This document shows, piece by piece, positions 13,584-64,000 of a stretch of 64,000 nt of DNA. The position numbers and the translations under genes were made by a program. The stretch covers positions 7,119 to 71,118 of the forward strand of contig WQSK01000001.1 in assembly GCA_009787915.1 (NCBI GenBank), written 5' to 3'. Each line of letters starts with the position of its first letter. The first letter of the stretch is position 1. The notes beneath the pieces are model-generated. The model made no database searches and was not told the origin of the DNA. It saw only the letters and a program-made list of their open reading frames with translations. Source of the stretch: Bacillota bacterium (GTDB taxonomy: Bacteria; Bacillota; Clostridia; Christensenellales; UBA1242).

Positions 13584-13586
13584 CAT

Positions 13587-14522: not shown

Positions 14523-14540
14523 CGTGATATAAATTTCTCA

Positions 14541-16138: not shown

Positions 16139-16156
16139 TAATGTTATCATATCGGC

Positions 16157-17479: not shown

Positions 17480-17499
17480 CAACCACATATATATAGAAC

Positions 17500-18183
17500 A
17501 TGATGATTCGTGTCGTATGTGTTTTGTTTGCCGTAGCAATTATTACTTCTTTGTTTGTGGACTTTCGGTCACGCCCAGTTCATGCGCGGACGGCGGATTT
17601 TCATGTTGTGATTGACGCTGGTCACGGCGGGCATGACGGTGGGGCGGTAGGAAAAAACGGAACTCGCGAGGCCGATGTTGTTTTGGCTATTGCAAGGTTT
17701 TTGGAGAGCGAACTTAAAAGCATTGGTATAGGTACGACTATGACAAGGACGACCGAGGCAGATTTGGCGGCCCCTATGGCAAGAAATCGCAAGCGTAGTG
17801 ACATGGATGCGCGCCGTAGAATTATCGAGTCGGTTCAACCCGATTTGGTGGTTTCAATACACCTAAACAGTCTGCCATCGCACCCTGGGGTTCGGGGCTT
17901 TCAGGCATTTTTCAACCAAAGCGGCGAAATCAGTAGACACTTTGCCGAGTCCCTTCAGGCGCATTTTAACAATCTGCCATTGCAGGGCAATCGCCGCGCG
18001 TCCACGGGGGATTTTTATATTTTGAACTCTACGGGTTTTCCGTCGGTGCTTTTGGAGTGTGGGTTTTTGTCTAACCCAAATGACGAGGCACTTTTAAGGA
18101 CAACCGAGTATCAACAGTTTTTGGCGGCAAACATTGCGGAGGCGATAGACCAGGCGCGGAGAAATGTTCCTCCAGTCAGATAA
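17500..18183 (+). CDS. N-acetylmuramoyl-L-alanine amidase (Amidase_3, CwlD-like, N-terminal TM anchor)
   Basis: VVIDAGHGGHDGGAVG, SIHLNS, ECGFLSN. Confidence 0.85.
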   Translation: MMIRVVCVLFAVAIITSLFVDFRSRPVHARTADFHVVIDAGHGGHDGGAVGKNGTREADVVLAIARFLESELKSIGIGTTMTRTTEADLAAPMARNRKRSDMDARRRIIESVQPDLVVSIHLNSLPSHPGVRGFQAFFNQSGEISRHFAESLQAHFNNLPLQGNRRASTGDFYILNSTGFPSVLLECGFLSNPNDEALLRTTEYQQFLAANIAEAIDQARRNVPPVR

Positions 18184-18242
18184 TTTTGCACTCACTTTTG
18201 GTTGCCAAAAAAAGTTTGCGGTTATAGAATATCTATATTCAT

Positions 18243-20090: not shown

Positions 20091-20106
20091 CGAATGTAAT
20101 GAGGAA

Positions 20107-20137
20107 CAAGGTTCTTGAACGTAGTGAGAGGTTCTTA
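20107..20137. repeat. degenerate copy D of the hairpin family
   Basis: CAAGGTTCT TGAACGTAGTGAG AGGTTCTTA sits between the two ABC genes. Flanks are conserved but the inner stem is broken. Confidence 0.45.
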
Positions 20138-21870
20138 TGAAAAATTTATTAAGAATCTTTTCGTTTTTTAGTTTCATGAAGTGGCGCATTATTGCGGTAC
20201 TGATTGTAGGTGCAATCAGTATCATTATGTTTGCGTTCATGCCGACATTTTTGCGGGGTGCTTTTGACACCTTGCGAGGGTGGTTGGGGGATGCAGGGGT
20301 TCCGCTACCACTCCATTCAGTTGTCCAGTATCTAATTATCTTTTTGGTTCTTGCCGTGTTGAATGCGCTGTTTGATATTTTTTGTCAGTTTACGATACTT
20401 AGATGTGAAAACGACATCATGGTCAAAAAGATTACCGAAGTCAAAAGAAAACTTGACACCGTGCCTATATCGTTTTTACAAAAATTCACCGTTGGGGATT
20501 TGTCACGACGGGTTGCGACCTTGACACCTATGATTATCAATAACTTCCTTGTGACATTTTATACAATGGCGCGTGTTGCGGTGTTCTTTATAACTTCGGC
20601 GATTATGATGTTTATGATTAACTGGATACTGGCAATTGTTGTTATTCTTTCAATCCCAATTTGTGTTATTGCTGCACGTCTTATTTCCAAGAAAACCCAA
20701 AAATATTTTAACAACTTCTTTACTGTGGCAAGCACAACATTTACGCACATTGACCAAAAGTTCTCGCTTAAAGAATTTCAGACTATTCATGGTCTTGATG
20801 ACGGAACAAATAGTAAATTCAAAGAAATCAACGCCGACCACGCAAAGTCTATGACCGCCGAGGAAACCGCACTTTCTTTTAACGCCGTGTATATAAGGTT
20901 TATTCAGGATTTTATGACCTTGTTGGTTACGTTCCTGTTTGCTGTGTTGTATGTGACCCAGGCTATACCAACCGAGTTCGGGGTGTTGCCCGCATTTGTT
21001 TTATTTTCAAACAGGTTTTTGGCCAACGCCGTTATTGTTACAACTGCGACAAATCTATTGCAACATATTGTCACCAACGCGCCTAGGGTTTTCGAGATTT
21101 TGGACTTTGAAACAAGTATCACCGAAAAAGAACACATCGAGATACCGCGCATTCGTTCGGCGATTAAGTTCAACAATGTGTCGCTTATGCACGGAGAAAA
21201 AAGAAACCTTGACCGAATTTCGTTTAACATTCCGCAAGGTTCATCCGTTGCATTTGTTGGACCTGCAGGCGGGGGCAAGTCGTATGTCGTTGACCTCTTG
21301 GCCAAGTTGGAAAAACCATCAAGCGGGGCAATAACCGTGGATGGTATAAGTTTGGACGAGATTGAGAGCAGAAGTTACTATAAATGCGTGGGGATTGCTT
21401 TTGAACAGCCGTTTATTTTCCGAGGCACGGTTGCCGAAAACCTGTTGTATGGTATTCGTCGCGAACTCCCTGAAAACGTTATGTCTGTTACAGAAAAACT
21501 TGGAAGTAACGGATTTATTGAGGAACTTGAAAACGGGTATGAAACATTTTTGACAGACAGTACCTCTGTTATTGGGCATGGGCAAAAGCAGGCACTTTGT
21601 GTGGCGCGTTTGATTTTACAAAACCCAGACGTTGCGATATTTCACCAGTCTTTGTCGGCGACCGACCCTGTGACGGAAAAACAGGTCTATGAAAAAATCA
21701 TGAAGCACAAAAAAAATCAGACTACAATTTTTGTTACCCACCGTCTTGCCAGCGCGGAAAATTGTGACATGATTTATTATATGGATAATGGAAAAATCGT
21801 AGAGCACGGAACCCATGCGGAACTTATGGCAATGAAAAAGAAGTATTATAAGGCCTTTACGGGGGAGTAA
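20137..21870 (+). CDS. ABC exporter half-transporter (TMD-NBD)
   Basis: Walker A GPAGGGKS, Q-loop, signature-like IGHGQKQ, Walker B position AIFHQS (D-E replaced by H-Q), switch VTHRL. Confidence 0.85.
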   Translation: MKNLLRIFSFFSFMKWRIIAVLIVGAISIIMFAFMPTFLRGAFDTLRGWLGDAGVPLPLHSVVQYLIIFLVLAVLNALFDIFCQFTILRCENDIMVKKITEVKRKLDTVPISFLQKFTVGDLSRRVATLTPMIINNFLVTFYTMARVAVFFITSAIMMFMINWILAIVVILSIPICVIAARLISKKTQKYFNNFFTVASTTFTHIDQKFSLKEFQTIHGLDDGTNSKFKEINADHAKSMTAEETALSFNAVYIRFIQDFMTLLVTFLFAVLYVTQAIPTEFGVLPAFVLFSNRFLANAVIVTTATNLLQHIVTNAPRVFEILDFETSITEKEHIEIPRIRSAIKFNNVSLMHGEKRNLDRISFNIPQGSSVAFVGPAGGGKSYVVDLLAKLEKPSSGAITVDGISLDEIESRSYYKCVGIAFEQPFIFRGTVAENLLYGIRRELPENVMSVTEKLGSNGFIEELENGYETFLTDSTSVIGHGQKQALCVARLILQNPDVAIFHQSLSATDPVTEKQVYEKIMKHKKNQTTIFVTHRLASAENCDMIYYMDNGKIVEHGTHAELMAMKKKYYKAFTGE

Positions 21871-34209: not shown

Positions 34210-37200
34210 ATGACTAACTTTAGAAGAAGAAGTGTTTTGCGAAAGTTTGCGGTATTGGGCATTGCATCAATATTCGTTTTGACAGGTTTCATTGGCGGGG
34301 CATTCGTGCCGTTGGTTCAACGTGCTATGGCTGCATCATTGGTTCCAAACATGAGGATTCAAAATCTCCCACGTCCAAGTGTCGAAATCGGAACACGTAT
34401 CCACGAGGCTGGTATTCCAACTGTTAGTGGTTTAGGCGGTGGCGACATTGTTTACATGGCACTTGTTCGCGGTGGAATTACAGAATTTCGTGCGCGCACA
34501 ACTGCGAACTGGAGTAACACGGGTGTCGACATGGTTGTGCCTCTGACAGCAGAATACAATCGCCGTGCAGTTTATTCATGGAGAATTTATCTTCAGCGTC
34601 CTGCAATCTCACCTGCTACTGGTTTCAGATACGACCTTCTTCATTCTCATAACATAGATGTTTACCAAGGTCAGTTCCGTTTTGAAATCCCGACCTCTGC
34701 AAGACATTACCACGATGGTAACGCTATAAGTTTCATCCCTAACGTGGCAATTCCTGGGCAACGTGTTCTTATGCCACTTCCTAACCAATTTATCGACAAT
34801 GCGGGGAATGATTTGTTTGATAACAATACCCCTGACGTTGCATTGATGCGTCGGGCAATTTTGGCGGACTGGAATCGTAACCAAATCCCAGGTGTGGCGG
34901 ATAGTGATGACCCAGCAAACGATGCGGTCAACACACAAATCGCGAACGACCCGAACCTTTTCCGCAGACTTGTTTGGGCAAACACAACAATTCAGTTCTT
35001 TGGCCCAGGTAAAGGCGCGGCTCCAAGACAAATATACACAGGTAACCAAGTAAACGACGCAACTGGTACCAATGCATCACGTGTTTTCCAAAGTTCACTC
35101 CGTGGTGAGTTCCGTGCCCAGTTTGAATTCAACCACCCACGTATTCAATCAAGAACAAGCACAGATTCTTGGCAAGTAGAAGGTGTTACAATCAACACAG
35201 GCGGTACATCTGTCACAGCCAACGAAGCAAACATCCGCGAAAACGTAGTGTTTACTATGCCACCTGCTTTTGGTGCTATGTCTGGTGCTTTTACATTGAA
35301 CCAATATTTCCAATTGCCATTGCCAACTATCAACATTGCGACACGCTCTGACACAGACGCTCTTGACCTTCCTATGGGGCACGTTTCTTTCCCAAACACA
35401 AACTCTATGGTAAGTTACACATTTATTACCGTAGAACATTTTGACCTCCAAAATAACAGAACAAATCTTTACAACAACATTCGTTTGACCGCAGAGAACG
35501 GATACCGTTTCCGTCCAACAACGTTTGGTTCTTTCCGATTTGTTTATCACACAACAACACCATTTGGTGTAGGTTTCGTAGAACAAATTGGTGCAAACGA
35601 CCCTCAATATCACAACCGTGTTGTAGTTGTACAAGATGGCGGGCAAAGTTTCATCCAATATACTCCGCACAACCTTTTCCGTATTACAAACAACGCTGTT
35701 GCACCGTCACTTAGATGGACGCTCCCGTTCAACTATCATTTGGTTTCAACATTGACAGGTGACGATGCGGCTGCGGTTACTGCGTACAACGCGGCGATGT
35801 ATAACACTGCTCTTCATATTCTTCCAACTCATACAATTGCTTTGGCCGAGGCAAACCCATTGTTCAATCTTGCGGCAAACAGCCCAGACCGTATTCTTGA
35901 ACACATTGTTCCAAGTTCAAACACGGCTATCGTTGAAAGAACACAACGCGATGGTGCTTTGTTTAACAACGCGCCTGACCTTTCACACTTTATGCCAGGT
36001 ATGGGAAGTACACCTGTAACAATCATCCCTACAAACGGACAAATTGTTATTCCTGCATTGTTGGGACTTAACAACGTTTCATCAAGCCGACAACTTACAT
36101 ACAGCATCACAATCACACGCAGACGTACCGACTCGGCAGATACCGACAGTGTTCAATTCACAACATCTCCGACTGCACAACTTGTAAATGATACAGACCG
36201 TTCTGTTTTCCGTCTTGATAACAGAAGGCCACTTATCATTGAATTCGGTCAAGGAACCGCAGAAGTACAACGCGGACGTTTCACAAACGGCACACAAAGC
36301 GAAGTACATATAAGAAGTTTCGGCAACACACAAATCCCAGTCGCGCAAACATATGAAATCGCAATTGAAATTATTGACAACGCTTCTGTTTTGGGCTCTG
36401 GCGGAAACATGATGACACCTACAATCAGACACTCTTTCAGAATCGATGACAACATTGGTAACACGGTTACCGACCACCAAGAACTCCGCCCGTCTTTCAG
36501 CGGTACCCCAAACCCAGTTCGCACAGGTCTTTATGTTCGTGACACACTTAACTTCCGTGAACTTGGTGTATGGTGTGATTCTTCAAACAATGTTGCAGTA
36601 GATTACTATATTGTTTGGAATACATCCGCTGGTGCTGCCGCCGACGGTTTCCAAACCAACGCTGTCCGTATCCAAGACAGACATATCCGTAGCAACACAA
36701 TCTTGTTCCCATTGGATGTACGTTCAAACCCTGATGCACAACCTCTTATTACTTATCTTGATGCAAACCCGTCGGCTTCGTTTACCATTGTTGCCATTGC
36801 AAGAAACAGACACGCACTTGTGAGCCAAGTTTATAATAATTTCCAACCACGTAGCGACACATACCCTGTAGACCCTACTGGTCGTAACGATGTGCTTACA
36901 TTTGACGAACTTCATACTTTCTTGACCGCAACAAATATTGTTGAAGCAAGAGATAATTTGCCTGCAGGAACAAACATTTCGTTCTCAAGGTTTACATTGA
37001 ACAACTTTGGTGGTGGGGTTGCACAAACACTTGCTCTAACACCAATAACAGGTGCCGTTCGCGACACACGTGTTAATATTACAGCAAATATCAGGAATGC
37101 GGCTGCTGGACAAATTGACACCAACATCAACGCGCAAGTTGTAACCCCGTCTGGCAGAACACTTACAGTTTCGGGTGCACCTTTTAACACATTGGTAACT

Positions 37201-39300
37201 CAAACTGGGACGGAGTTCAGAAACTTGACAAACCTATCGTTCTTGCCAACCGAAAGGGGTACGCATACGTTGATTATCACCGCAAGAAACAGGGCAAATG
37301 TTACCGTATACACACACGAGTTTGAAGTAGGCGGTACGGCGACAGTTATACCTGTGCTTGAGGGCGGGGCAACAACACTCCGTATCGGTCAAGTTGGTAA
37401 CTTGCCAAGGTTGTATGTTTTCTATAATGATATTAGACACATTGTTGGTTCTGATAACAGAAGTATTGTTCCAGAAGCAACCCCAAATGGTACACCTATC
37501 GGGACATTCAACACACGTGTTCTTGCAACCAGCGACGAAAGTTGGATTCCAAGCGTCCACTGGGATTCAGGAACAGTGTTCTTCCTAAGCGAGGATACAT
37601 ACACACTTGTATTTGAAATTTATCTAAACAGCGCTCCTGCTACTCCTATCACAGTTTATCGTCCTATCACAGTTACAGGTTTGACATCGGATGACTTTGA
37701 TGTATCGCTTGACAGTTTCAGACAAGATTATCTTGCCCTCCCAGGTCGTGGTTTCACACACGCGAGTCCAACAGGCAGCGCAGGAACTTTCCGTGACTAT
37801 AACATTTTGCCAGACTTTGTAAACCAAATCGCTGGTGACATGACACTTTCTGATTTCCAACTTGACCAAGGTATGGTGCATAACAATGTTGTTGGTGCTA
37901 CAGGGAGCCAACGTGATTCGTTCAGTTTCGGTCGTATCGTGCTTCCAAACGTTGCTCCTAATTTCAATGACCTCGTTCGTGCAGGTATGACACATCTTAG
38001 ACCTGATGACATCCGTACTCGTACAACAGTTACACACAGCCGACGTCCAGCAACACCAATTTTTGATTCTGCCACAGGTACAGAGCAACACTTGATTGTC
38101 AACGGTTCACTTGCGGAACACTATTATTTCTTCCCAAGCGGTACTGTTGAGGTTCCAGTAGACGAAAGACGCAGACCAGGTGACGTCGGTATGCCTGCAA
38201 CAATTCCAACTCCAACACCATCACTTGCAGACGCAGTTGCACAAAATTTACGCAAAGTCGTTGACTACTATGGTAATGCTTGGTTCAGGGCAACTGCTGT
38301 GGCAACAGATACAGATTGGTTCACGTTTGACGATTATATCTATAACCCAAGCCGACTTGTTGACCGTTCACAATCTCCTGATGGTATCTACACAATTGTT
38401 TACACGGTCACAATTCGCGGTATCAGCCAAACACGTGAATTCCGTATTGCGGTCGGTGACGTTGCAATTCCTATAATCACATTCTTGGCTGATGAAGATG
38501 AACTCTTTGCCGACCGTGACCCAGGTGGCATGTTCACAATTGAAACCGCACGTGACTTGGCGGTCAACCCAGCGGGCGGAAGAACAACAATCCAAGAAGA
38601 AGGTTTCTTTGCACCTTGGTGGGTTGCGCACAACATGGAAATCCGTATTACCCGACCAAACGGTGACAACGTATCTTGGACAACCGACACAACTGCACCG
38701 ATTGACGGAGCAAACCTATTCCGTACCCCTGCAGAGCAACTGATTAATTTCTATGACAGCATGGAAGCGGTTGCGGGTGCAAACCCTCCTGCCGTAGGAA
38801 CAAACCAATGGGGCTTCCCAATCACCAACGCAAATGACGAGATGAGCATGATTCGACGCGGTGCTGGTGACCGTGAGGGCAGACAATGGAGGTTTAGATT
38901 CCAAGACAGTGGGGACTATACAATCACATTTGAAATTCAAAGTGACAGTGGGCAACGTACTTCGGTTTCAAGAACAGTTCGTATCAGCACTCCTGAAACA
39001 CCGACCCGTATTGCTGCACAAACAATTTGGGGCGCCGTGTTGATTGTTATATCTTCAGGTTTGTTAATTGGTGTTATAGTTTACTTTATCCAAACTGGAC
39101 GCAAGACAAAATTCCAGGGTACAGGCGGTAAACCAACCACTCCTGGACCAAAAGGTGAAAAGAAGTTCATGGACCGCTTTAAGAAAAAAGACAAAGCGGA
39201 CGCGCCTAAGGTCGAGGCTCCGAAAAAGGTTGATGCGCCAAAAGCGGATAAGGCTCCGAAAGCCGTTGCGGCCGACGAAGTCAAACCAAGTGACGAGTAA
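34210..39300 (+). CDS. giant (1696 aa) surface protein: signal peptide, large ectodomain, C-terminal TM and Lys-rich tail
   Basis: Signal-like N-terminus ending AMA. C-terminal helix WGAVLIVISSGLLIGVIVYFI followed by a KKDKADAPK-type tail. Confidence 0.8.
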   Translation: MTNFRRRSVLRKFAVLGIASIFVLTGFIGGAFVPLVQRAMAASLVPNMRIQNLPRPSVEIGTRIHEAGIPTVSGLGGGDIVYMALVRGGITEFRARTTANWSNTGVDMVVPLTAEYNRRAVYSWRIYLQRPAISPATGFRYDLLHSHNIDVYQGQFRFEIPTSARHYHDGNAISFIPNVAIPGQRVLMPLPNQFIDNAGNDLFDNNTPDVALMRRAILADWNRNQIPGVADSDDPANDAVNTQIANDPNLFRRLVWANTTIQFFGPGKGAAPRQIYTGNQVNDATGTNASRVFQSSLRGEFRAQFEFNHPRIQSRTSTDSWQVEGVTINTGGTSVTANEANIRENVVFTMPPAFGAMSGAFTLNQYFQLPLPTINIATRSDTDALDLPMGHVSFPNTNSMVSYTFITVEHFDLQNNRTNLYNNIRLTAENGYRFRPTTFGSFRFVYHTTTPFGVGFVEQIGANDPQYHNRVVVVQDGGQSFIQYTPHNLFRITNNAVAPSLRWTLPFNYHLVSTLTGDDAAAVTAYNAAMYNTALHILPTHTIALAEANPLFNLAANSPDRILEHIVPSSNTAIVERTQRDGALFNNAPDLSHFMPGMGSTPVTIIPTNGQIVIPALLGLNNVSSSRQLTYSITITRRRTDSADTDSVQFTTSPTAQLVNDTDRSVFRLDNRRPLIIEFGQGTAEVQRGRFTNGTQSEVHIRSFGNTQIPVAQTYEIAIEIIDNASVLGSGGNMMTPTIRHSFRIDDNIGNTVTDHQELRPSFSGTPNPVRTGLYVRDTLNFRELGVWCDSSNNVAVDYYIVWNTSAGAAADGFQTNAVRIQDRHIRSNTILFPLDVRSNPDAQPLITYLDANPSASFTIVAIARNRHALVSQVYNNFQPRSDTYPVDPTGRNDVLTFDELHTFLTATNIVEARDNLPAGTNISFSRFTLNNFGGGVAQTLALTPITGAVRDTRVNITANIRNAAAGQIDTNINAQVVTPSGRTLTVSGAPFNTLVTQTGTEFRNLTNLSFLPTERGTHTLIITARNRANVTVYTHEFEVGGTATVIPVLEGGATTLRIGQVGNLPRLYVFYNDIRHIVGSDNRSIVPEATPNGTPIGTFNTRVLATSDESWIPSVHWDSGTVFFLSEDTYTLVFEIYLNSAPATPITVYRPITVTGLTSDDFDVSLDSFRQDYLALPGRGFTHASPTGSAGTFRDYNILPDFVNQIAGDMTLSDFQLDQGMVHNNVVGATGSQRDSFSFGRIVLPNVAPNFNDLVRAGMTHLRPDDIRTRTTVTHSRRPATPIFDSATGTEQHLIVNGSLAEHYYFFPSGTVEVPVDERRRPGDVGMPATIPTPTPSLADAVAQNLRKVVDYYGNAWFRATAVATDTDWFTFDDYIYNPSRLVDRSQSPDGIYTIVYTVTIRGISQTREFRIAVGDVAIPIITFLADEDELFADRDPGGMFTIETARDLAVNPAGGRTTIQEEGFFAPWWVAHNMEIRITRPNGDNVSWTTDTTAPIDGANLFRTPAEQLINFYDSMEAVAGANPPAVGTNQWGFPITNANDEMSMIRRGAGDREGRQWRFRFQDSGDYTITFEIQSDSGQRTSVSRTVRISTPETPTRIAAQTIWGAVLIVISSGLLIGVIVYFIQTGRKTKFQGTGGKPTTPGPKGEKKFMDRFKKKDKADAPKVEAPKKVDAPKADKAPKAVAADEVKPSDE

Positions 39301-56032: not shown

Positions 56033-56045
56033 CGGAGGGTTACCG
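56033..56045 (+). repeat. fragment copy of the tRNA-Ser 5' end (13 nt)
   Basis: CGGAGGGTTACCG equals 56173-56185. Confidence 0.8.
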
Positions 56046-56088
56046 CTAGGAGCGCAAGCGACGTCGGGAACCTGAAGGAACGAAGTTA

Positions 56089-56113
56089 CGGAGGGTTACC
56101 GAAGTGGTCATAA
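56089..56113 (+). repeat. fragment copy of the tRNA-Ser 5' end (25 nt, acceptor plus D-arm)
   Basis: CGGAGGGTTACCGAAGTGGTCATAA equals 56173-56197. Confidence 0.85.
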
Positions 56114-56147
56114 GAACCTGGCTTGCGCCAGAACCTTGGACCACTCC
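56101..56147. repeat. covarying hairpin family, copy C (opposite orientation to A and B)
   Basis: GAAGTGGTC ATAAGAACC TGGC TTGC GCCA GAACCTTG GACCACTCC. Confidence 0.7.
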
Positions 56148-56173
56148 GTGGTATAATCGTTCCAAAATTGCTC

Positions 56174-56262
56174 GGAGGGTTACCGAAGTGGTCATAACGG
56201 GGCGGTCTTGAAAACCGTTAGGGTGCAAGCCCACAAGAGTTCGAATCTCTTACCCTCCTCCA
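56174..56262 (+). tRNA. tRNA-Ser (anticodon UGA), class II with long variable arm
   Basis: Hand-folded: acceptor GGAGGGT/ACCCTCC, anticodon loop CTTGAAA, variable arm GGGTGCAAGCCC, T-arm AGAGTTCGAATCTCT, discriminator T, encoded CCA. TGgTATAAT promoter at 56149-57. Confidence 0.9.
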
Positions 56263-57776
56263 AGCGATTTAATATGCGGACTGGAAAGTTCGTTGTAATC
56301 AATGCCTTGTTCGTGCAAGGTAATTTTAAGGTCGTTTAGGGTTATCGGATCGACTTTGTCAAAGTTATAAAACATAAAAATTCCGTGTTCCAAAACCCAA
56401 ATAGAATTAACAAATCCATGTATGATTTTCTTTTGGTACGTAGGGTCGTTTATATCTCCGCCAATAAATTGTTGCAGTCGTTTTCTATAATCTTCCGCAG
56501 TTCTCGGCAAGTTAGATATATGTCGGAGTTTTGACAACTCGATGTTTAAGTCACTTTTTTGTATCTCGAGGTCTTTGCTACGTTGGTTGATTTTTGAAAC
56601 TATTGTTTGACCTTGTGCCACAAGTAAAGTGTCAATCAATTTTTCAATTTCCCGGTCGATGACAGATATGCGTTTTTCGTACTCTTTAACCCGTTGCGTG
56701 GTTATATTATTGGCGTGATAATCAGAGAGCAATTTACTTGCACGTTCTATGTTCTTTGCGTTTGATATGAACTCGATAATGTCTTGGACAACCGACTTTT
56801 CTAACTCGGACTTGTTCTCGTTTGATTTATGACAATCCTTGAACTTGTGTCTGTTACTGCAAACATAGTATCTAAAATTTGTTTCGCCATTTCGGACTTT
56901 ACCGCAAACGCCATTCATAGTAGCACCACAATGTCCGCAGTATGCCTTGCCAGTCAAAAGATACTCGACCTTTGCTTTACCTTGGGCGGACAAACGCTTT
57001 TTCGTTGCACACATCTTTTGTACTTCTTCAAAAAGTTTATCGTCGATAAGCCTGGGGTATATGTTGGTGTATTCAACACCATGACGTTCAAGTATTCCGA
57101 TGTAGTTTTTGTTTTTCAAGTTGTGGTAAATGTTTGTGACACTCCAAGGCTCGCCACTTCTATTGCGTATACCTTTTTCGTTAAGTTCTTTGCAAATCTC
57201 TTTCTTAGGTTTTCCGCTTGCATAGTCTGAAAAAATCTTTTTCATAATTTCGGCTTTGGGTTTATCAATTTGAATTTTCTTGTCAACAACCTTGTACCCA
57301 TACGTCACAATTCCGCCAGTCCAGTTCCCCTTGTCAAGATTGATTTGATTGCCACGTTTAATTTTCTGAGAGAGTTCCACTGAATAGAACTGGTTGTAAC
57401 CCTCTATGACACTTTCTAACAAAATGCCCTCTGGCGAGTCCGCTATGGCTTCCGTTGCCGACACGACCTTAACGCCTGCTTCTTTAAGTTGTCGTTTATA
57501 AACCACACTTTCATATTTGTCCCTAGAAAATCGGTCAAGTTTATACACCAAAATCACGTCAAATATTTCTTGTTTGCTGTCCGAAATCATGCGTTGAAAT
57601 TCAGGACGTTTGTCATTAGTCCCCGTCATAGCACGATCAACATACTCGCCTACAATGGCGAGATTTTGTCGTTGGGCAAATTCCCCACAGACTTTAACCT
57701 GTCCTTCAATCGACTGTTCCGTTTGGTTGTTGGAACTGTACCTTGCGTAGATTACTGCTTTGTTCATTTTACACAC
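56250..57776 (-). CDS. large serine recombinase
   Basis: N-terminal resolvase domain AVIYARYSSNNQ...SIEGQ, recombinase domain, Zn-ribbon (CGHCG...C..RYYVC), coiled coil. The last codons overlap the tRNA-Ser 3' end. Confidence 0.9.
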   Translation of the reverse strand: MCKMNKAVIYARYSSNNQTEQSIEGQVKVCGEFAQRQNLAIVGEYVDRAMTGTNDKRPEFQRMISDSKQEIFDVILVYKLDRFSRDKYESVVYKRQLKEAGVKVVSATEAIADSPEGILLESVIEGYNQFYSVELSQKIKRGNQINLDKGNWTGGIVTYGYKVVDKKIQIDKPKAEIMKKIFSDYASGKPKKEICKELNEKGIRNRSGEPWSVTNIYHNLKNKNYIGILERHGVEYTNIYPRLIDDKLFEEVQKMCATKKRLSAQGKAKVEYLLTGKAYCGHCGATMNGVCGKVRNGETNFRYYVCSNRHKFKDCHKSNENKSELEKSVVQDIIEFISNAKNIERASKLLSDYHANNITTQRVKEYEKRISVIDREIEKLIDTLLVAQGQTIVSKINQRSKDLEIQKSDLNIELSKLRHISNLPRTAEDYRKRLQQFIGGDINDPTYQKKIIHGFVNSIWVLEHGIFMFYNFDKVDPITLNDLKITLHEQGIDYNELSSPHIKSLGGG

Positions 57777-57810
57777 TCCTTTTTGCCCTTAACAAGCAAC
57801 CGATCGTAGG

Positions 57811-57941
57811 GCTGCCTTTTGGGCTTAGCCGACAAACCGCACAACCGCCCAAGGCAGTCAAGGTGGAAGTTCCAAGGGAAAACTACCTTGACGGTCTTGG
57901 GCGTGTTGTGCTACCAACATCGGCTATGCCCAAAAGGGAGC
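57811..57941. other. 130-nt extended imperfect hairpin, single-strand-origin-like
   Basis: Nested helices: 57815-24/57928-37, 57826-32/57920-26, 57839-45/57905-11, 57846-53/57896-903 and 57857-64/57885-92. Confidence 0.6.
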
Positions 57942-58402
57942 ACACCAACTGTACCACAAGTGATGGGAAAAGTTAGGTTTTTGCTGTGTAAAGTATTGGT
58001 TTTGTGTAGGTAAAGTCATGGGACAAATTAAAAACGATTTTTTAAAATTCTAGTAGTCAAAATGGGTACTTCTTGCGTTCTCCATGTAGGGAAAGTTTTT
58101 TTGATTTACCCCCTCACTTTTGACCTTTGTCGTGACCTACTGTTAAGGCAAAAGAAAAACAAATGACAGCAAATCTTTAAGAGGTGGCTGTGCAAAAAAC
58201 TATTCGAGTACAAATCGGCAGTTATCGGCTTCGTGACAAAGTTACGAGGTCGCTTTTGCCATGCGTGCCGATTTATGCAGAAGTCACAACAAAGGTAGCA
58301 GTAAGTCTTGCGGAACGAGTGGCAAGCCTTCTAGTCGATTGCTATCAAATGAGCAAAGCGAATGAGCCGAGAGTGTGCAAACACACTTGCGACCGCACAG
58401 TG

Positions 58403-58488
58403 GTGGCGAGAGACGAGGCTTGCCCGTCTCCGCCACGTGCGCCGCAAGGGGTTGCTAGCGAAGCGGTTGTCATACTTGATATTGGCAA
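58403..58488 (+). other. GC-rich 12-bp hairpin plus small hairpin presenting ACTTGATATT in its loop; candidate nick/double-strand origin
   Basis: Stem 58403-15 / 58425-36. TGTCA (58469-73) / TGGCA (58484-88) flank the loop TACTTGATAT. The element lies 34 nt upstream of the rep ATG. Confidence 0.45.
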
Positions 58489-58521
58489 CACTTAAAAATT
58501 CTAAAAGAGGTGGATAATCAC

Positions 58522-59448
58522 ATGGACAAGTTCATGTCAAAACGTGTTGAGAGGGTTTTGAAACCTAACGCACATTTATTATCTAAACAAAAGAGAGAGC
58601 AAGTAAATACTCGGATAAATCGGTTTAAGTTCTTTACTGAAATCATTTACTATCACGAACCTTTTGATATCCTGACTGGTAAGAAAGATTATAACTGGGT
58701 AGATACTGAAACTGGCAAAATCATCTCAGCGAGTAAACGAAAAGAGATAACAGACCAAGAGCAAATTGACGAATACGCAAGTCGTGGCGAGATTTTGGAA
58801 ATCGACAACGGATTTGACCGCAGTCAATACGAGAGTTGTCGCAGAGCAAAAGACAATTTTTATGGATATGCTTTGTGTAATGACTGGGTTTATTTTTGTA
58901 CTTTTACGATTGCGAAAAGCGAACATGACCATGATGACAAAGCAACAAAATACTACTGGCAAATGTTCCGCCAAAAGTTACAAAAGAGATTTCCAACTGT
59001 TAAGATCCTTGCAGTTCCTGAACGCCACGCCAAAGGCAACATTCATTTTCATGCTTTACTTGGGGATTGTGACTTAGAAAATATTTTAGTCGTGGCAATC
59101 AACCCACACACAAGCGAACCTGTATTACAAAGTGGTCGACAAGTTTATAATTTGCCACTCTGGGACAAAGGTTTTTCAACTGTTGTTAAAATCGACCAAG
59201 AGAGTATTGAAAACCAGTTGAAAGCAATCAACTACATTATTGGATATGTGACCAAGCAAGAGAACAGCATTGGGCTTAATCAGAAACGCTATTATCGAAC
59301 TAGAAACTTGGATTTCAAAAACACCGAGATAAAGTTTACTGACAAAGCGAAATATGAGAGTCTGCTATTAAGTACGTTTGATATAAACGCAAAACTCGTC
59401 AAACACAAAGAGAACGACAGAATGATTGTTTTTAGGGTGTACAATTAA
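58522..59448 (+). CDS. HUH rolling-circle replication initiator (two-Tyr, phiX gpA / gokushovirus VP4-like)
   Basis: Motif 1 FCTFTIA, motif 2 HFHALLG, motif 3 [11 protein letters not shown] 58522 follows an AGAGG RBS. Confidence 0.75.
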
Positions 59449-59473
59449 GAAGGTTAATGGTACAATCACAACG

Positions 59474-60451
59474 ATGAAAATCGTTTCATTTTTTGCAGGT
59501 GCTGGGGGTCTTGACCTTGGCTTTGAAAAAGCGGGGTTTCACACTGTTTGGGCGAATGAATACGATAAAACAATTTGGGCTACTTATGAAAAAAATTTTC
59601 CTAATTCTAAACTTGATAAACGAAGCATAACAGATGTATCTCCCAAAGAAGTTCCCGATTGTGACGGAATCATTGGCGGACCGCCATGTCAAAGTTGGAG
59701 TGAAGCCGGTGCGGGGCGTGGCATTGATGACGATAGGGGTAAATTGTTTTTAGACTATATTAGGATATTAAAAGATAAAAAGCCAAAGTTTTTCTTGTGT
59801 GAAAATGTGGGCGGTATGCTTTTAGATAAACACAAAGTTAATTTCGATAAGTTTATTTCCGAGTTTGAAAGTGCAGGATATAATGTTTCTTGGCAACTTG
59901 TTGACGCTAATGATTTTGATGTCCCTCAAAATCGCAAGCGTGTCATCATCGTGGGATATAGAAAAGATTTAAATAAAAAGTTTGAATTTCCACCTGTGCA
60001 AGAATATAAACCAAATTTGAAAGACGCTATATGGGATTTGCGACAAGCCCAACCTGCTAAACAGCATAATAAGTCATGGGGGCTTGAATTACCAATTCCG
60101 AATCACGAATATATGAATGGCGGATTCTCTACAATCTTTATGTCACGTAATCGTGTACGTTCTTGGGACGAACCTTCTTTCACTATCCAAGCAGGTGGCA
60201 GACACGCCCCTATCCACCCACAAGCCCCTAAAATGCTTTTTGTCGAACAAAACAAAAGAATATTCGTTCCCGGTAAAGAAGATGATTATAGGCGGTTGTC
60301 CGTGCGTGAGTGTGCAAGAATACAAACATTCCCCGATAGTTTTATTTTTATTTATAATGACATTGCCGACGGTTACAAAATGGTGGGTAATGCCGTGCCA
60401 GTAAACCTAGCGTATGCGATTGCAAAAAAGATAAAGGAAGATTTGAAATGA
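59474..60451 (+). CDS. DNA (cytosine-5) methyltransferase, M.HaeIII-like
   Basis: Motif [46 protein letters not shown]. The TRD segment [33 protein letters not shown] resembles M.HaeIII as I recall it. Confidence 0.9.
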
Positions 60452-61404
60452 GAACAACAATAAACTCAACAATTAAAGGCAAGGCATATGAATACGCTTG
60501 CGTGTTGGCGATAAAGGAACTTGTCACGCCTATTCGTCCAGTTGAAATCATAGCGAATTCAAGTCTTGAAATAGCAGAACAAAGATATAACGAAATCACG
60601 CAAGACGAGCAAGCCGAAATGTTGAGATCCGCAAAAGCGGGCATGAGCAAAATTATTGAAATGGAACCCAAAGTAACCGACGACGGAGATGATAAATTGA
60701 CCATATCGCTACAACCCGATAATTTGGCGAAAGGTGGGGATATTCGTGATGTCCTGATTATCCGACGTTCAATCAAGTGGGAAATCGGAGTTTCGGTTAA
60801 ACATAACCACGAGGCGTTAAAACACTCACGGCTTTCGATGAGTATTGATTTTGGCAAACTTTGGCTTGGTGCAAATTGTTCCAAAGATTACTTCACTGAA
60901 ATAAAACCTTTGTTTGACATGTTGTCAAAAGAAAAGTCTTGCGGGAAATTGTGGTCGCAGTTGCCAAGCAAGGAGAATGCCGTATATGTTCCGTTATTAA
61001 CTGCTTTCAAAAATGAGTTTATTAAACTTAATTCTCAAAACGAAGACGTAACCGAAAATCTAATTCGCTATCTGCTTGGAAGCAACGGGAAAGACTATTA
61101 CAAACTTATCCACCGCAATAATAACATTGCTACGATTATTCCATTTAACTTGTTCGGCACATTAAACACAAGCGGTAAAAACAAGCCAACTATAACTATC
61201 CCAAATATCGAATTACCTACGCGAATTATTGAGTTTGATTTCAAAGAAAAATCACAAACCACGTTGATATTAACAATGAATAATGGTTGGTCAATTTCTT
61301 TCCGAATTCACAATGCAAGTTCCAAAGTTGAAACAAGTTTGAAATTCGATATTAATTTACAAAGCAAGCCCGAAAAAATGTTTTATATAGATGTTAAGTG
61401 GTAA
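60448..61404 (+). CDS. putative cognate type II restriction endonuclease
   Basis: ATGA overlap with the MTase stop. 318 aa. No independent motif recognised, so the call rests on position and size. Confidence 0.5.
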
Positions 61405-61485
61405 GTACCTAAATAGTTCCAAACTTGAAGATAATTTTATATTGTCTTTGAGTAGAATTCGTGGTAGTATCTGGGTGGAGGCATT

Positions 61486-62553
61486 TTGAGAAAGAAAAAT
61501 CCTAGATACAAAGAATATTTGAGACGCAAAAGTAGGAAGAAAGGAGTGCGTAAAGCTGAACGCCGTTACCATAAACCATGCACTAGTAGGAAGAAAGAAG
61601 CTATCAAAATAAAAAAATATAAAAAAACTGATAGATGCCACTTACAAAAGATTAAAGAAAAGAGTTTTAGTCTTCCAGAGGATTTTAGCTTGCTTAGTAA
61701 TCCAGAAGACGTGAAGAGCACTTTTCACTGTATTCGTGAATTCATGATTGCGAATAGAGGTCTGCGCATGAAGATAAAAATCGATGCTAGAAATATTAAA
61801 AATGCAACAGCAGATGCAGTAATGTACCTACTCGCGATGCTTAGAGACAAGCGGAATCAAAATGAAGGTATTAGGTGGTCTGGAGACCTCCCGCTAGTAG
61901 ATGGAGCAAGACGTGTATTTATGGAGTCAGGATTTCTTAGCTACGTTAATAGCTTAAATAATATTATCAAAAACGCCGATAAGGTTGCGATTAAAAATGG
62001 AAAAGAGGTTAAATCAGATCTTGCAAAAGCCATATGCGATTGGGTTATAGACAAAATTGGGTGTACTAGAAATGAAACGAAATTTTTGCAGAAGACTATT
62101 GTAGAGCTTATGGAAAACACGAAAGCACATGCTTACACTGATGACACAGATCTTTTAAAAGATTGGTATTTGTTTGTCGAAAAGCGCAGCTCGAAATTTG
62201 AGTTTGTATTTCTTGACACAGGTGGCAGTATACCTTCGACCATTAAAAAGAGATTTGGAGAAAAGGTTTTTGGTGCTAGGCAAGTAGATTTGATTGAGTC
62301 TGCTTTGGAGGGCGGAGAATTTCGTTCAACTACAAAACTTAAGCATCGAAACAAAGGCTTGCCAAATATTAAACAAAAAATTGAATATGGACATATTAAA
62401 AGTATGGTGATATTATCTAATAGGGCGAAGTGTGAACTGTATAAAGAAAATAATAATCTAGTTATAAAAAAAGATGAGCAAAAAAATAAATTATATGGTA
62501 CGCTATACTACTGGGAAGTAGACACTGTGAAATTGAAAGGAGAAGCATGTTAA
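61486..62553 (+). CDS. GHKL (anti-sigma-kinase-like) ATPase with an extremely basic ~60-aa N-terminus
   Basis: GGAGG RBS and TTG start. N-box IVELMENTKAHAY, G1-like FLDTGGSIP, G2-like NKGLPNI. The first 60 aa are about half Lys/Arg. Confidence 0.6.
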   Translation: MRKKNPRYKEYLRRKSRKKGVRKAERRYHKPCTSRKKEAIKIKKYKKTDRCHLQKIKEKSFSLPEDFSLLSNPEDVKSTFHCIREFMIANRGLRMKIKIDARNIKNATADAVMYLLAMLRDKRNQNEGIRWSGDLPLVDGARRVFMESGFLSYVNSLNNIIKNADKVAIKNGKEVKSDLAKAICDWVIDKIGCTRNETKFLQKTIVELMENTKAHAYTDDTDLLKDWYLFVEKRSSKFEFVFLDTGGSIPSTIKKRFGEKVFGARQVDLIESALEGGEFRSTTKLKHRNKGLPNIKQKIEYGHIKSMVILSNRAKCELYKENNNLVIKKDEQKNKLYGTLYYWEVDTVKLKGEAC

Positions 62554-62885
62554 TGGAAAAGATTAAGATAAATGTCGCACATGACTTTACTGAGATACCG
62601 GGTCCACGCTATAAAAAGGATGGTAAATTTTCTGGCGAGGAATTTAGGGATAAACACCTAATCCCTAACTACGATAAGGCAAAGGCTAATGGTGTAAAGA
62701 TAATGGTCAATCTTGACGGTGGGTATGGCTATCCAGTTTCTTTTCTCGAGGAATCTTTTGGTGGACTCGCAAGGATTTATAGAGACGATAATGTTGTGGG
62801 TATGTTTGATTTTGTTTCAAAAGAGGAGCCATCTTTGATAGATGATATCAGAAAATATATATTGGATGCGAATAAGAGGGTTTGA
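62547..62885 (+). CDS. STAS-like DUF4325 protein
   Basis: KIMVNLDGGYGYPVSFLEESFGGL fits the DUF4325 pattern. The start overlaps the upstream stop (ATG 62547, or TAATG at 62553). Confidence 0.6.
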   Translation: MLMEKIKINVAHDFTEIPGPRYKKDGKFSGEEFRDKHLIPNYDKAKANGVKIMVNLDGGYGYPVSFLEESFGGLARIYRDDNVVGMFDFVSKEEPSLIDDIRKYILDANKRV

Positions 62886-62886
62886 A

Positions 62887-63480
62887 ATGTCAACAAGAAT
62901 AATACAGAGGATATTTTTAATAATAGGTATATTTATCATTATTTCTCTAATTGTTTGGCTAGTACTTGCTTCGAGACTTGACATAAACAAAGAGTCTTTT
63001 TATCATATTTCTTTGTCGGAAGGTATACCAATTATTCTAATTGCCGTGGCAACGATGTTTCTGTCTTTTTGGTTTTCTAATAAAATCTCCGATGAGAAAA
63101 AGCAAAAAGAAACTATATATGAGTATCTTAAAAAGATTATAACCATGTTTGAGAAGATAGATTCTATTGTCGAGGCTTATGATTTAACATCGGCTGCTAA
63201 AATAAGAAATTTCACATGTTGCATGCAAGTTGTTAGTGCGTTTAGAAAGTTAAGCAATACAGTAGATACACTCAAAAAAATGGATGCGGAGCGCTTTTGT
63301 AAAGATGATTTATGTGCGTTAGAGTCACATATTAAGGAATTTAATGACTACATCACTGGGTTCAAGTTTGAAAATGATGTATCGGCCAAGTCGAGGAACG
63401 CTTTGATAATTAAAGTCGGAAAATTTACAAGTGACGCTGGTAATATAATTTTCATATTCGGAGTAAACCTATTTAGATAA
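62887..63480 (+). CDS. 2-TM membrane protein with ~110-aa cytoplasmic helical domain
   Basis: ATG lies 1 nt after the upstream stop. TM1 IFLIIGIFIIISLIVWLVLA, TM2 IPIILIAVATMFLSFWF. Confidence 0.6.
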   Translation: MSTRIIQRIFLIIGIFIIISLIVWLVLASRLDINKESFYHISLSEGIPIILIAVATMFLSFWFSNKISDEKKQKETIYEYLKKIITMFEKIDSIVEAYDLTSAAKIRNFTCCMQVVSAFRKLSNTVDTLKKMDAERFCKDDLCALESHIKEFNDYITGFKFENDVSAKSRNALIIKVGKFTSDAGNIIFIFGVNLFR

Positions 63481-63562
63481 TGAACCTCCCAACAACGCCA
63501 CGGCAGATAAACAACCTTGACAGTTCGTTTATTACGTCGTATGCTCCTCCAAGCGAAGCGCA

Positions 63563-63606
63563 GGAGAGGACAAGGTTCTCGCAGAAGCGAGGTTCTTACC
63601 CTCCTC
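63563..63606. repeat. covarying hairpin family, copy B (at the right junction of the element)
   Basis: GGAGAGGA CAAGGTT CTCGC AGAA GCGAG GTTCTTA CCCTCCTCC. The 3' strand is the duplicated tRNA-Ser 3' end. Confidence 0.7.
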
Positions 63607-63666
63607 CAAAATATGCTCGAAATTTGTGCCGAAAGTTCAGCAGAACCCAACCACGATGATTGATAT

Positions 63667-64000
63667 TTACAAAAAATATTCTTCTGCGTTTGACAATTGT
63701 TCTTTGAGTTCATCATAGTCATGCACTATACCGCCTCTGCGCAGGTGTGAATTCAAGTCACTTCTTACATTTCGTTTTGCATAGTCCAAAAACTCTGGTG
63801 TGGCAGAAACAGTTTTGTCCATTCCAAATTTTTCAGATATTAAAAAGTCGTTCGTCGCAAACTCAAGATATTCCCACAAATCTTTTTCCGAAAGATGTTT
63901 TAGGTCGATTCTTTGACTCTCACGTTTGATTTTATAATCTTGCAGTTTTTTGTATTCATGTAGCGCAGTTCTGTACTTTTCTATTAGTTGATATTTTTTA
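63667..64000 (-). CDS. hypothetical protein, C-terminal part (gene runs off the right edge)
   Basis: The minus-strand frame of the 63667-63879 ORF stays open to position 64000 (KYQLIEKYRTALHEYKKLQDYKIKRESQRIDLKHLSEKDLWEY...). It contains an RSDLNSH (Rx5H) segment. Confidence 0.5.
   Translation of the reverse strand, partial: KKYQLIEKYRTALHEYKKLQDYKIKRESQRIDLKHLSEKDLWEYLEFATNDFLISEKFGMDKTVSATPEFLDYAKRNVRSDLNSHLRRGGIVHDYDELKEQLSNAEEYFL

Follow-up and report, generated by a model that had tools for sequence, protein, structure and literature searches.

The subject of this analysis is a block of about 7.3 kb within a 64,000-nucleotide stretch of DNA from a Bacillota bacterium (contig WQSK01000001.1, positions 7,119 to 71,118; this whole stretch is called the window, and positions are counted from its first letter). 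The block runs from about 56264 to 63556 or 63609 and is probably an element integrated, at a tRNA-Ser(UGA) gene, in the chromosome of an uncultured gut Firmicute. It carries a large serine recombinase (LSR), a rolling-circle replication (RCR) initiator (Rep), a restriction-modification (R-M) pair and three further genes. It is probably a "hitcher" that integrates and replicates by the rolling-circle route; a filamentous-phage satellite is the likeliest form, and an integrative mobilizable element (IME) the alternative. An earlier inspection of the letters alone, hereafter the sequence-only reading, had called it a satellite-like or plasmid-like integrative element; given the LSR, the HUH Rep, the defense cargo and the lack of structural genes, this is a fair description. 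The features that carry the interpretation are the following (L numbers, here and below, are our handles for sequences compared with the window).

56174..56262, plus strand: tRNA-Ser(UGA), the integration target (ARAGORN; Rfam tRNA, 54.1 bits), its 3' end being part of attL
56248..56263, plus strand: left 16-nt direct repeat TCTTACCCTCCTCCAA, which includes the LSR stop codon
56250..57767, minus strand: LSR, 505 aa from ATG (reading frame open back to a GTG at 57776)
57809..57942, plus strand: 134-nt imperfect hairpin beside the LSR start (dG -51.5 kcal/mol as single-stranded DNA, z = -8.6)
58190..58495, plus strand: small conserved open reading frame (ORF), 101 aa, of which the first ~57 are conserved; called as a gene in L002
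58386..58448, plus strand: hairpin rich in GC that immediately precedes the origin; its place is taken in relatives by a hairpin with another sequence
58466..58495, plus strand: candidate double-strand origin hairpin, GTTGTCA / TGGCAAC, with loop TACTTGATAT and then ACACTTAA
58522..59448, plus strand: two-tyrosine HUH rolling-circle Rep, 308 aa (PF23343; phrog_3419)
63594..63609, plus strand: right 16-nt direct repeat TCTTACCCTCCTCCAA, the displaced tRNA 3' end and outer limit of the element

The recombinase has the architecture of the LSRs. A catalytic domain with the R-x-S nucleophile motif (N-terminal motif YARYSSNNQ, read from the translation; PF00239 Resolvase, 6.3e-27, residues 7-150) is followed by Recombinase (PF07508, 9e-19) and zinc-ribbon (PF13408 Zn_ribbon, 8e-12) domains. 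The protein matches the integrase family phrog_95 in PHROGs (1e-105), its nearest match in the PDB is the TP901-1 integrase, and the exact 505-aa product is already on a database record. A search of IMG/VR with the protein gave no match and thus no close relative there; matches in small "Bacteriophage sp." scaffolds were to unannotated fragments and were uninformative.

The position of the LSR gene ties it to the tRNA. As had been noticed from the sequence, its C-terminal codons run into the tRNA gene: the last four codons and the TAA stop (56250-52) lie inside the 3' end of the tRNA-Ser acceptor. The same relationship, an LSR stop within the 3' end of a convergent tRNA gene, holds in all three loci where it is visible (Ser, Pro and Arg), with the stop 22 nt inside tRNA-Pro(GGG) in L007 and the LSR end overlapping tRNA-Arg(TCT) by 15 nt in L013. 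The perfect 16-nt repeat that the sequence-only reading had placed at 56248-63 and 63594-609 occurs there and nowhere else: TCTTACCCTCCTCCAA has exactly two copies in the window, no further copy is found with up to two mismatches, and none of 100 shuffles reached two. The tRNA-Ser gene would be kept intact by the element-borne copy of the tRNA end.

With what kind of replication protein is this recombinase paired? The sequence-only reading had described a two-tyrosine HUH Rep of Microviridae type. The first part of that description stands: the protein matches PF23343 (REP_ORF2-G2P; 7e-13, 49 bits vs. a cut-off of 27.8), and the motifs FxTxT (F125/T127/T129), ExH, HFH (H175-F-H177) and YxxxY..K (Y238/Y242) are invariant in 26 Rep homologues. 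The second part must be abandoned. The 26 matches to phage records comprise 17 bajarodino viruses, 8 Dulem viruses and a single Microviridae VP4 (E = 9e-4); three of the bajarodino/Dulem records were opened, and each proved to be a complete, circular genome of the Inoviridae in which Zot directly precedes rep and the origin is of the same type. Names and sizes had suggested that the bajarodino and Dulem viruses were microviruses, an assignment that we rejected on seeing these Zot-carrying genomes. The Microviridae label probably arose because ACTTGATATT is shared with phiX174 and because the Rep has two tyrosines. Judged by protein family and origin sequence, the replication module is of the filamentous-phage (inovirus) type and not of the microvirus type.

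Kinship with Zot-bearing phages is also apparent in individual loci. The Reps of L006, L010, L011 and L049, 33-54% identical over nearly their full length, are closer to that of the window than the phage records are, and these loci resemble Zot-encoding prophages. L006 has a Rep 54% and an LSR 62% identical to those of the window, the same origin, and a P-loop protein homologous to the Zot of L010 (E 2e-15). L010 and L011, both from metagenome-assembled genomes (MAGs) of Clostridia, combine Reps that are 33-34% identical over nearly their full length with a Pfam Zot, a tyrosine integrase and a tRNA, and in L049 (Rep 48%) a tyrosine integrase is accompanied by a coat-like protein of 33 aa and by a large membrane protein. 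Weak matches of the Rep to tiny cryptic staphylococcal RCR plasmids were seen as well. The Zot-like protein of L006 is 77% identical to one in L044, where an inovirus-like prophage follows a methyltransferase gene (10600-20540 of ENA ERZ27257297 k141_253059; also L043 and L045). That prophage encodes a Zot-like ATPase, a 463-aa adsorption-protein-like protein, an LSR and a Rep of another family (PF02407 Viral_Rep plus helicase). Because its Rep belongs to PF02407, Rep modules appear to have been swapped among these phages. The methyltransferase that it follows is the closest homologue (59%) of the one that flanks the element in the window.

The candidate origin stands just upstream of rep, in single copy, in the window, in every close locus and in L010. 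Its general form is GTTGyCA / TGGCAAC with the loop TACTTGATA(W), followed by ACACTTAA. The putative Rep nick would fall within ACTTG^ATA (58474-81), and the putative target sequence is TACTTGATATT or, in longer form, GTTGTCATACTTGATATTGGCAAC. Twenty-seven nucleotides here (58473-99) are 100% identical in L007, though its Rep is 70% and the surrounding DNA ~69% identical. In more divergent loci the loop is kept and the stem covaries (GTTCCC/GGGAAC in L049, GTGTCCCTA/TAGGGACAC in L012 and L031, TCCTGTA/TACAGGA in L013), and a hairpin of the same type precedes rep in all three opened Inoviridae genomes (L050-L052). One hairpin per locus near rep, with an invariant loop and covarying stems, is the pattern to be expected of the cognate origin of an HUH Rep, and we take this hairpin as the predicted origin.

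The resemblance to phiX174 is limited. Like the phiX174 gene A protein, the Rep is an HUH protein with two tyrosines (YxxxY), and ACTTGATATT of the origin loop is found in the phiX174 origin region as well, where we confirmed it at 4295-4332, inside gene A; the nick there is at G^A. The element's origin, however, is a hairpin outside rep, whereas that of phiX174 lies inside gene A, and the element has no capsid genes. The 27-30-mer shared at the origin probably breaks assemblies where related elements coexist and, because of this, would hide such elements from surveys. A search of IMG/VR with the origin pattern returned one match, a chance occurrence without a Rep. In several metagenomic contigs with Rep homologues the sequence begins only some tens of bases before rep, at or near the origin hairpin (L040 1-118, L041 1-27, L042 1-682).

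The stretch between the LSR and rep genes had been described as 745 bp of structured non-coding DNA. Structured it is (z = -8.8 for the whole), but it holds the conserved small ORF at 58190-58495. This ORF has a ribosome-binding site, AGAGGTGG, identical to that of rep; its 3' part traverses the origin hairpins, and homologues occupy the same position upstream of the origin in L005 (40% identity, E 9e-18) and L042 (38%). Its 101-aa product, a candidate directionality factor for the LSR, matched no family in Pfam, PADLOC, PHROGs or NCBIfam. As for the 134-nt hairpin, none of 200 shuffles was equally stable. Counterparts with the core GCAGTCAAGG...CCTTKACGG were found in L005 and L007 only; in the available sequence of the Zot-positive loci the GCAGTCAAGG motif is absent, the L006 contig ending before the relevant region.

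Genes for a particle or for transfer are missing, as the sequence-only reading had stated. Pfam, PHROGs and PADLOC, tblastn with Zot queries and a scan for small hydrophobic ORFs disclosed no capsid, Zot or transfer gene in the element. Specifically, tblastn with three Zot-like queries found nothing in the window, L005, L007, L040 or L042, and the coat-protein scan found no small ORF with a transmembrane segment on the coding strand of the element. Neither the element nor the window contains a coupling-protein or type IV secretion system (T4SS) gene. The element is not an autonomous inovirus, because it has no Zot/pI ATPase, no small hydrophobic coat proteins and no adsorption proteins. Nor does it look like a microvirus: no capsid family (F/VP1) was matched, and its 7.3 kb exceeds the usual microvirus genome of 4.3-6.3 kb, a range given in PMC9865509. 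In being integrated, with its own replication and integration genes and no virion genes, it agrees with a phage satellite; in having its own integrase, flanking repeats and no mating-pore genes, it also agrees with an IME.

The same layout recurs elsewhere without Zot. The order LSR (minus strand), long hairpin, small ORF, origin, Rep (plus strand) and cargo is retained, and the cargo changes, ranging over type I, II and IV restriction genes and Ltp, as the following loci and L013 illustrate.

L005: LSR 77% identical to that of the window; cargo of two N6/N4 methyltransferases and unknowns
L007-9: LSR 37-42%, Rep 70%; cargo Mrr_cat/NA-iREase
L040, 5' part cut: Rep 62%; cargo hsdRSM (type I R-M), Fic and HicAB
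L042, 5' part cut: Rep 52-54%; cargo a YhcG-like nuclease

A more distant block, in a Saccharibacteria MAG (L013, 8800-12620 of CAYNKQ010000006.1), comprises an Ltp-like exclusion lipoprotein (TM2 + Lipoprotein_Ltp), a Rep, a 484-aa LSR and tRNA-Arg(TCT). The Rep of this block carries the ACTTGATA hairpin, and by virtue of the block the architecture reaches the candidate phyla radiation.

The ends of two relatives deserve description. In L006 the LSR stop is not beside a tRNA; it adjoins a motif of ~40 nt that is also found at the far end of the L005 cargo (GGGTGGGTyGGGTGGG..AGTAnAAGCCG; L006 5900-5980, L005 7475-7530). This is consistent with L006 being a circular form with an attP-type junction, or a tandem copy. 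L007 has no long direct repeat, its one match being of 8 nt inside a 46-nt imperfect palindrome (13625-13670) that has GGTCGACC at its center and includes the final bases of tRNA-Pro, TCGACCAT. This palindrome, intergenic and ~6.2 kb from tRNA-Pro, is likely the right junction of the L007 element. The Zot-positive L006 and the Zot-less L042 both come from ERZ27257345, in the ERZ272573xx series of ENA assembly accessions, which is only suggestive of the co-occurrence of a helper.

The cargo of the window's own element consists of five genes, all on the plus strand.

59474..60451, plus strand: C5-cytosine DNA methyltransferase (ORF open from 59426; PF00145, 2e-101; PADLOC MTase_II, 5e-113; gene call in L002)
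60448..61404, plus strand: HaeIII-family type II restriction endonuclease (PF09556, 1.8e-111, whole profile; PADLOC REase_II, 1.6e-103)
61486..62553, plus strand: 355-aa protein with a SpoIIAB/RsbW-like GHKL kinase/ATPase domain (a basic N-terminal helix, then an alpha/beta domain)
62553..62885, plus strand: STAS-like DUF4325 protein (PF14213, 8e-7), the presumed partner of the kinase-like protein
62887..63480, plus strand: membrane protein of 197 aa whose two transmembrane segments are N-terminal (reading frame open from 62842; hydropathy scan; gene call in L002)

An m5C methyltransferase with a putative restriction enzyme had been proposed for the first two genes, and the profile matches bear this out and place the endonuclease in the HaeIII family. 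The genes are adjacent, overlapping by 4 nt, as in a HaeIII-type R-M system, and the specificity predicted from the family would be GGCC. That tetranucleotide occurs once in the element against 9.8 expected occurrences. It is also scarce in the host part of the window (1-56173: 61 observed vs. 119 expected), a depletion that would be compatible with prolonged exposure to restriction at GGCC.

The three co-oriented downstream genes, likewise present as first described, are less familiar. The 355-aa protein has the invariant motifs E..N..HA, DxGxG and GKGLP, which are the N, G1 and G2 boxes of GHKL ATPases. An AlphaFold2 model built from 52 sequences had a pLDDT of 88.8 (an earlier model from 4 sequences, at 61, was too poor), and its best Foldseek match, SpoIIAB (TM(target) 0.64-0.74, E 4e-5), suggests a fold of that type; a sequence profile run against the PDB retrieved only RsbW and SpoIIAB, as weak matches. 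The family, phrog_3364, is large, with ~1500 cluster representatives. The DUF4325 protein matches phrog_5816 as the C-terminal part of a 441-position profile, a fusion. No family in Pfam, PADLOC or NCBIfam was matched by the two-segment membrane protein, and sequence searches of PADLOC, NCBIfam and the PDB with the 355-aa, DUF4325, 212-aa, 101-aa and 182-aa proteins gave no match. The module as a whole is absent from PADLOC and NCBIfam and is represented in PHROGs by families of unknown function. Its layout resembles a partner-switching pair with a membrane component, and its context makes it possibly an uncharacterized defense or regulatory system.

If the block had been inserted, a shift in composition would be expected, and one is present. 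The GC content of the element is 38.4% vs. 43.2% for the host, lower than in any of 49 host chunks of equal length, and its tetranucleotide distance to the host is 0.231 vs. 0.136 +/- 0.033 for host chunks (~2.9 sd above). Only two host chunks lie above it, both covering a 1696-aa ORF; this ORF (34210-39300) has no Pfam match. The composition supports a foreign origin. The remainder of the window is core chromosome (gyrB, gyrA, uvrA, uvrB, metG, ABC transporters). To the left of the element is an rRNA/tRNA methyltransferase gene; to the right, a 182-aa gene on the minus strand (63667-64000, continuing into L002 6646-7194) stands between the element and ispG and has no match in Pfam, PHROGs, PADLOC or NCBIfam; it may belong to the host or be the remainder of an older insertion. 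An Rfam scan of 50-64 kb found tRNAs only. The outward-facing promoter proposed earlier at 63517-45 exists as a TTGACA-17-TATGCT site, but promoter-like sites occur in the region at the level of chance (22 vs. 21.9 expected).

How might such an element live? We propose that the LSR inserted it into the 3' end of tRNA-Ser(UGA), the element-borne copy of the tRNA end also supplying the last codons of the LSR, and that the LSR would excise it again as a circle. Rep would then nick the ACTTG^ATA loop upstream of its own gene, and rolling-circle synthesis would spin off single strands, for which the long hairpin by the LSR gene may be a complementary-strand origin and/or packaging signal. The slot downstream of rep would hold exchangeable cargo, at the place where related inovirus-like genomes carry Zot, coat and adsorption genes. 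Here the HaeIII-type R-M pair would act in defense and as an addiction module, and the function of the three-gene module is possibly defensive too. Because the element can build neither a particle nor a mating pore, it would have to spread with a helper, and a filamentous phage in the same cell, replicating in the same manner, may package its single strand. Such a helper is the route that we favor, at somewhat less than an even chance, because of the inovirus Rep and origin, the length tolerance of filamentous capsids and the packaging precedent of pDolos. Conjugative mobilization, with the Rep as relaxase, comes second; it is the main alternative, if an unlikely one.

Several observations weigh against this account. 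No helper phage, conjugative system or Zot homologue is visible within the 64-kb window, and the roles given to the 134-nt hairpin, minus-strand origin (sso) and/or packaging signal, are guesses at candidate functions. Three repeat structures compete as the right junction, which makes its position ambiguous. Neither an empty attB nor a circular junction was found: a scan of JGI metagenomes with the tRNA-Ser 3' end yielded five loci, none in synteny with the flanks seen in the window; database homologues of the methyltransferase encoded beside the element reach at most 59% identity, and the one examined was not syntenic; and a search of IMG/VR with the attP-junction pattern gave no match. Every copy of the exact element sits in the same chromosomal context. 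Nor does the break of L001 at the tRNA count as evidence of excision. That contig stops exactly 30 nt short of the first base that is specific to the element, and we considered and rejected its end as an attL/attB branch, because other tRNA-Ser genes (L027, L028) share that 30-mer.

Could the element instead be strictly an IME, excised by its LSR and transferred by a conjugative element of the host, with the Rep as a non-canonical relaxase (its origin of replication being the oriT) and with no phage involved? Streptococcal IMEs do pair an integrase with RCR-initiator "relaxases", including the phage-type PHA00330, and 35 of 118 lack a coupling protein (PMC5357655, PMC5704250); moreover, integrase, Rep and cargo without a T4SS are exactly what the element comprises. 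On the other side, this Rep and origin are common to complete Inoviridae genomes and Zot-positive prophages and not to known relaxases, the absence of coupling-protein and T4SS genes noted above extends to the whole window, and the serine-integrase IMEs described in those papers disrupt genes and do not target tRNA ends. We regard this explanation as unlikely, though as the strongest of the competitors.

A decaying filamentous prophage, which lost its morphogenesis genes, gained restriction genes and is now an immobile islet, seems to us improbable. It would account for the Zot-like and adsorption-protein-like genes in relatives with the same LSR, Rep and origin, for the finding of the element at one site only, and for the relic-like partial repeats around it. 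Yet all eight ORFs are intact, and the LSR, Rep, origin and long hairpin are conserved. Furthermore, the Zot-less layout is present in at least four further lineages (Rep 52-70%), with different defense cargo and, where it is visible, a different tRNA. The recurrence of an intact Zot-less layout with different cargo argues for a maintained lifestyle and not for independent decay.

More improbable still, in our view, is a placing of the boundaries by which the element carries its own complete tRNA-Ser. The choice of junctions involves the remaining repeats.

56033..56138, plus strand: two fragments that repeat part of the tRNA 5' end (56033-45, 56089-113), together with the left inverted-repeat arm (56111-38), all of uncertain membership in the element
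63544..63556, plus strand: 13-nt copy of the left junction, CTCCTCCAAGCGA, an alternative and possibly the true right junction
63557..63593, plus strand: hairpin-containing spacer between the right-hand repeat copies, holding most of the right arm of the inverted repeat

On the left, the tRNA end fixes the junction. For the right junction, the 16-nt repeat (element end 63609) competes with the 13-nt copy (element end 63556); as the sequence-only reading had pointed out, CTCCTCCAAGCGA at 63544-56 is the same as 56255-67, and it thereby spans the left junction. The candidate crossover dinucleotide of the LSR is the CC at 56257-58. With the 13-nt copy, the rebuilt attP is symmetric at 13 of 22 positions about this CC (null P(>=13) = 0.0017 per position), and the virgin attB at 10 of 22; an attP rebuilt with the 16-nt copy lacks dyad symmetry about the core. 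Under the 13-nt model the 53 nt between the right-hand copies would be a relic of an earlier related insertion; the spacer at 63557-63593 may be such a relic, or it may be part of attP.

The third structure is an inverted repeat of 26-28 nt, with arms at 56111-38 and 63571-98, that occurs nowhere else in the window (0 of 100 shuffles). It would define a mobile unit at 56113-63596 with its own complete tRNA-Ser, the arms being a palindromic attP split at TA. Complementarity between the arms is 86%, and changes within an internal stem of 3 bp compensate each other; each adjoins a tRNA fragment and ends on TA, the left one coming directly after an exact 25-nt copy of the tRNA-Ser 5' end; and joined they make a palindrome of ~54 bp. 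Attachment (attP) sites of LSRs look like such palindromes. The attB implied by this model, however, is a truncated tRNA, and in the relatives the LSR stops directly overlap the tRNA end, as would be expected if integration is at the 3' end. The model is also rated lower because L027, a tRNA-Ser locus without an LSR element, has a 5'-fragment array with the identical breakpoint. Upstream of the intact tRNA-Ser of the window the 5' fragments (13 nt and exactly 25 nt) stand in tandem; L027 (2385-2623) has two tandem units of ~98 nt with the same first 24 nt, and these break at the same base, after GGTCATAA. Such arrays look like the scars of another site-specific process, at the D-loop. The predicted attP junctions are GTCGTATGCTCCTCCAAGCGATTTAATATGCGG (13-nt model), GCGAGGTTCTTACCCTCCTCCAAGCGATTTAATATG (16-nt model) and GCGAGGTTCTTAAGAACCTGGC (palindrome model); the predicted attB is GAATCTCTTACCCTCCTCCAAAATATGCTCG, or a form ending in ...CCAAGCGAAGCGCAGG.

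Lastly, a satellite or derivative of Microviridae (phiX or gokushovirus type), packaged in a microvirus capsid, would explain the two-tyrosine HUH layout, the ACTTGATATT in common with the phiX174 origin and the lone VP4 match, and we consider it very improbable given that 25 of the 26 phage matches are to bajarodino or Dulem viruses, that the closest loci carry Zot-like genes and none of them a microvirus capsid, and that the element is larger than the microvirus range quoted above.

In the reading that we prefer, a filamentous-phage satellite or otherwise an IME, each ingredient has a described precedent, and no concept is overturned. The joining of a serine integrase to a replication module of this sort, which had appeared unusual, is less so in light of the literature: inoviruses use RCR Reps with serine or tyrosine recombinases, at tRNA sites (Roux et al. 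2019, PMC6813254), and in IMEs an integrase is found together with an RCR initiator of phage type (Coluzzi 2017, PMC5357655; Guedon 2017, PMC5704250). With inoviruses (Tubulavirales, PMC6813254; Clostridia/Enterocloster, PMC10061712) the element has in common the PF23343 Rep family, an origin hairpin (loop ACTTGAyA, then ACACTTAA) and tRNA integration. Its LSR, moreover, is 62% identical to that of a Zot-positive relative. It differs from inoviruses in the absence of Zot/pI, coat and adsorption proteins, the space being filled by restriction and other cargo.

RS1 and TLC of Vibrio cholerae are filamentous-phage satellites that integrate via the host XerCD at dif, whereas this element has its own LSR and a tRNA target. 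Like them and like pDolos it is small, has its own RCR Rep and lacks morphogenesis genes, and a helper particle without a fixed size limit would allow cargo to be added. We know of no defense-cassette carrier among pDolos, RS1 and TLC. The RCR plasmid pDolos is packaged preferentially, as a satellite, by the Shewanella inovirus Dolos (bioRxiv 10.1101/2023.11.28.569023); it is not integrated, unlike the present element, for which dependence on a helper is our proposal.

Firmicutes IMEs (PMC5357655, PMC5704250) resemble the element in their outward-facing terminal integrase, phage- or plasmid-type Rep, cargo, direct repeats and lack of a T4SS. Unlike it, they mostly have tyrosine integrases, many carry the TcpA coupling protein, the serine-integrase members disrupt genes, and a conserved sso-like hairpin or inovirus-type origin is not among their features. 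Staphylococcal cassette chromosome (SCC) elements (SCCmec; CcrAB LSRs) insert at the 3' end of rlmH, with direct repeats of ~15-18 bp and variable cargo that includes restriction genes. The likeness thus covers LSR insertion at the 3' end of a conserved gene, direct repeats, small size and variable restriction cargo; the differences are the target (rlmH there, a tRNA here) and the SCC replication proteins, which are helicase-type and not HUH Reps. Against NCBIfam CcrB/CcrA the LSR stays below threshold, at 127 bits vs. a cut-off of 900.

P4-like satellites, phage-inducible chromosomal islands (PICIs) and actinomycete integrative and conjugative elements (AICEs) have tyrosine integrases and other replication proteins, and they use tailed-phage capsids or an FtsK-like transfer protein. 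With P4-like/PICI satellites (de Sousa 2023, PMC10085698) the element shares tRNA integration, its own replication initiator and a variable defense hotspot, and with AICEs (pSAM2) an RCR Rep and tRNA integration. In the literature, we found no description of a Zot-less, LSR-integrating, tRNA-targeting element with an inovirus-type origin and Rep and a swappable defense slot. Only tentatively, then, would we suggest that the Zot-less family consists of distinct satellites of Gram-positive (possibly Saccharibacteria-infecting) filamentous phages that ferry exchangeable anti-phage cassettes, among them a possible new kinase-like/STAS-like/membrane defense system. Of an inovirus such satellites would retain the serine integrase, the strand-origin hairpins and the Rep alone; they would reside in tRNA 3' ends, the integrase ORF ending within the tRNA, and would travel from cell to cell in the filamentous capsid of a helper, which tolerates varying length.

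These results have practical and biological consequences. Natural LSR/att pairs aimed at tRNA ends are of interest to genome engineering. The compact conserved origin (a hairpin, the loop ACTTGATA, then ACACTTAA) could be used to find such elements in metagenomes, where they probably break assemblies at the origin and are missed by virus finders, and where IMG/VR offers no close relative. A widespread, unannotated SpoIIAB-like/STAS-like module is flagged as a candidate defense system. If our interpretation is correct, uncultured gut Firmicutes, and apparently Saccharibacteria too, would harbor filamentous-phage replication modules turned into minimal integrative vehicles, with the defense cassette as the sole part that varies, and a filamentous-phage branch would be added to the "hitcher" elements that move immunity genes.

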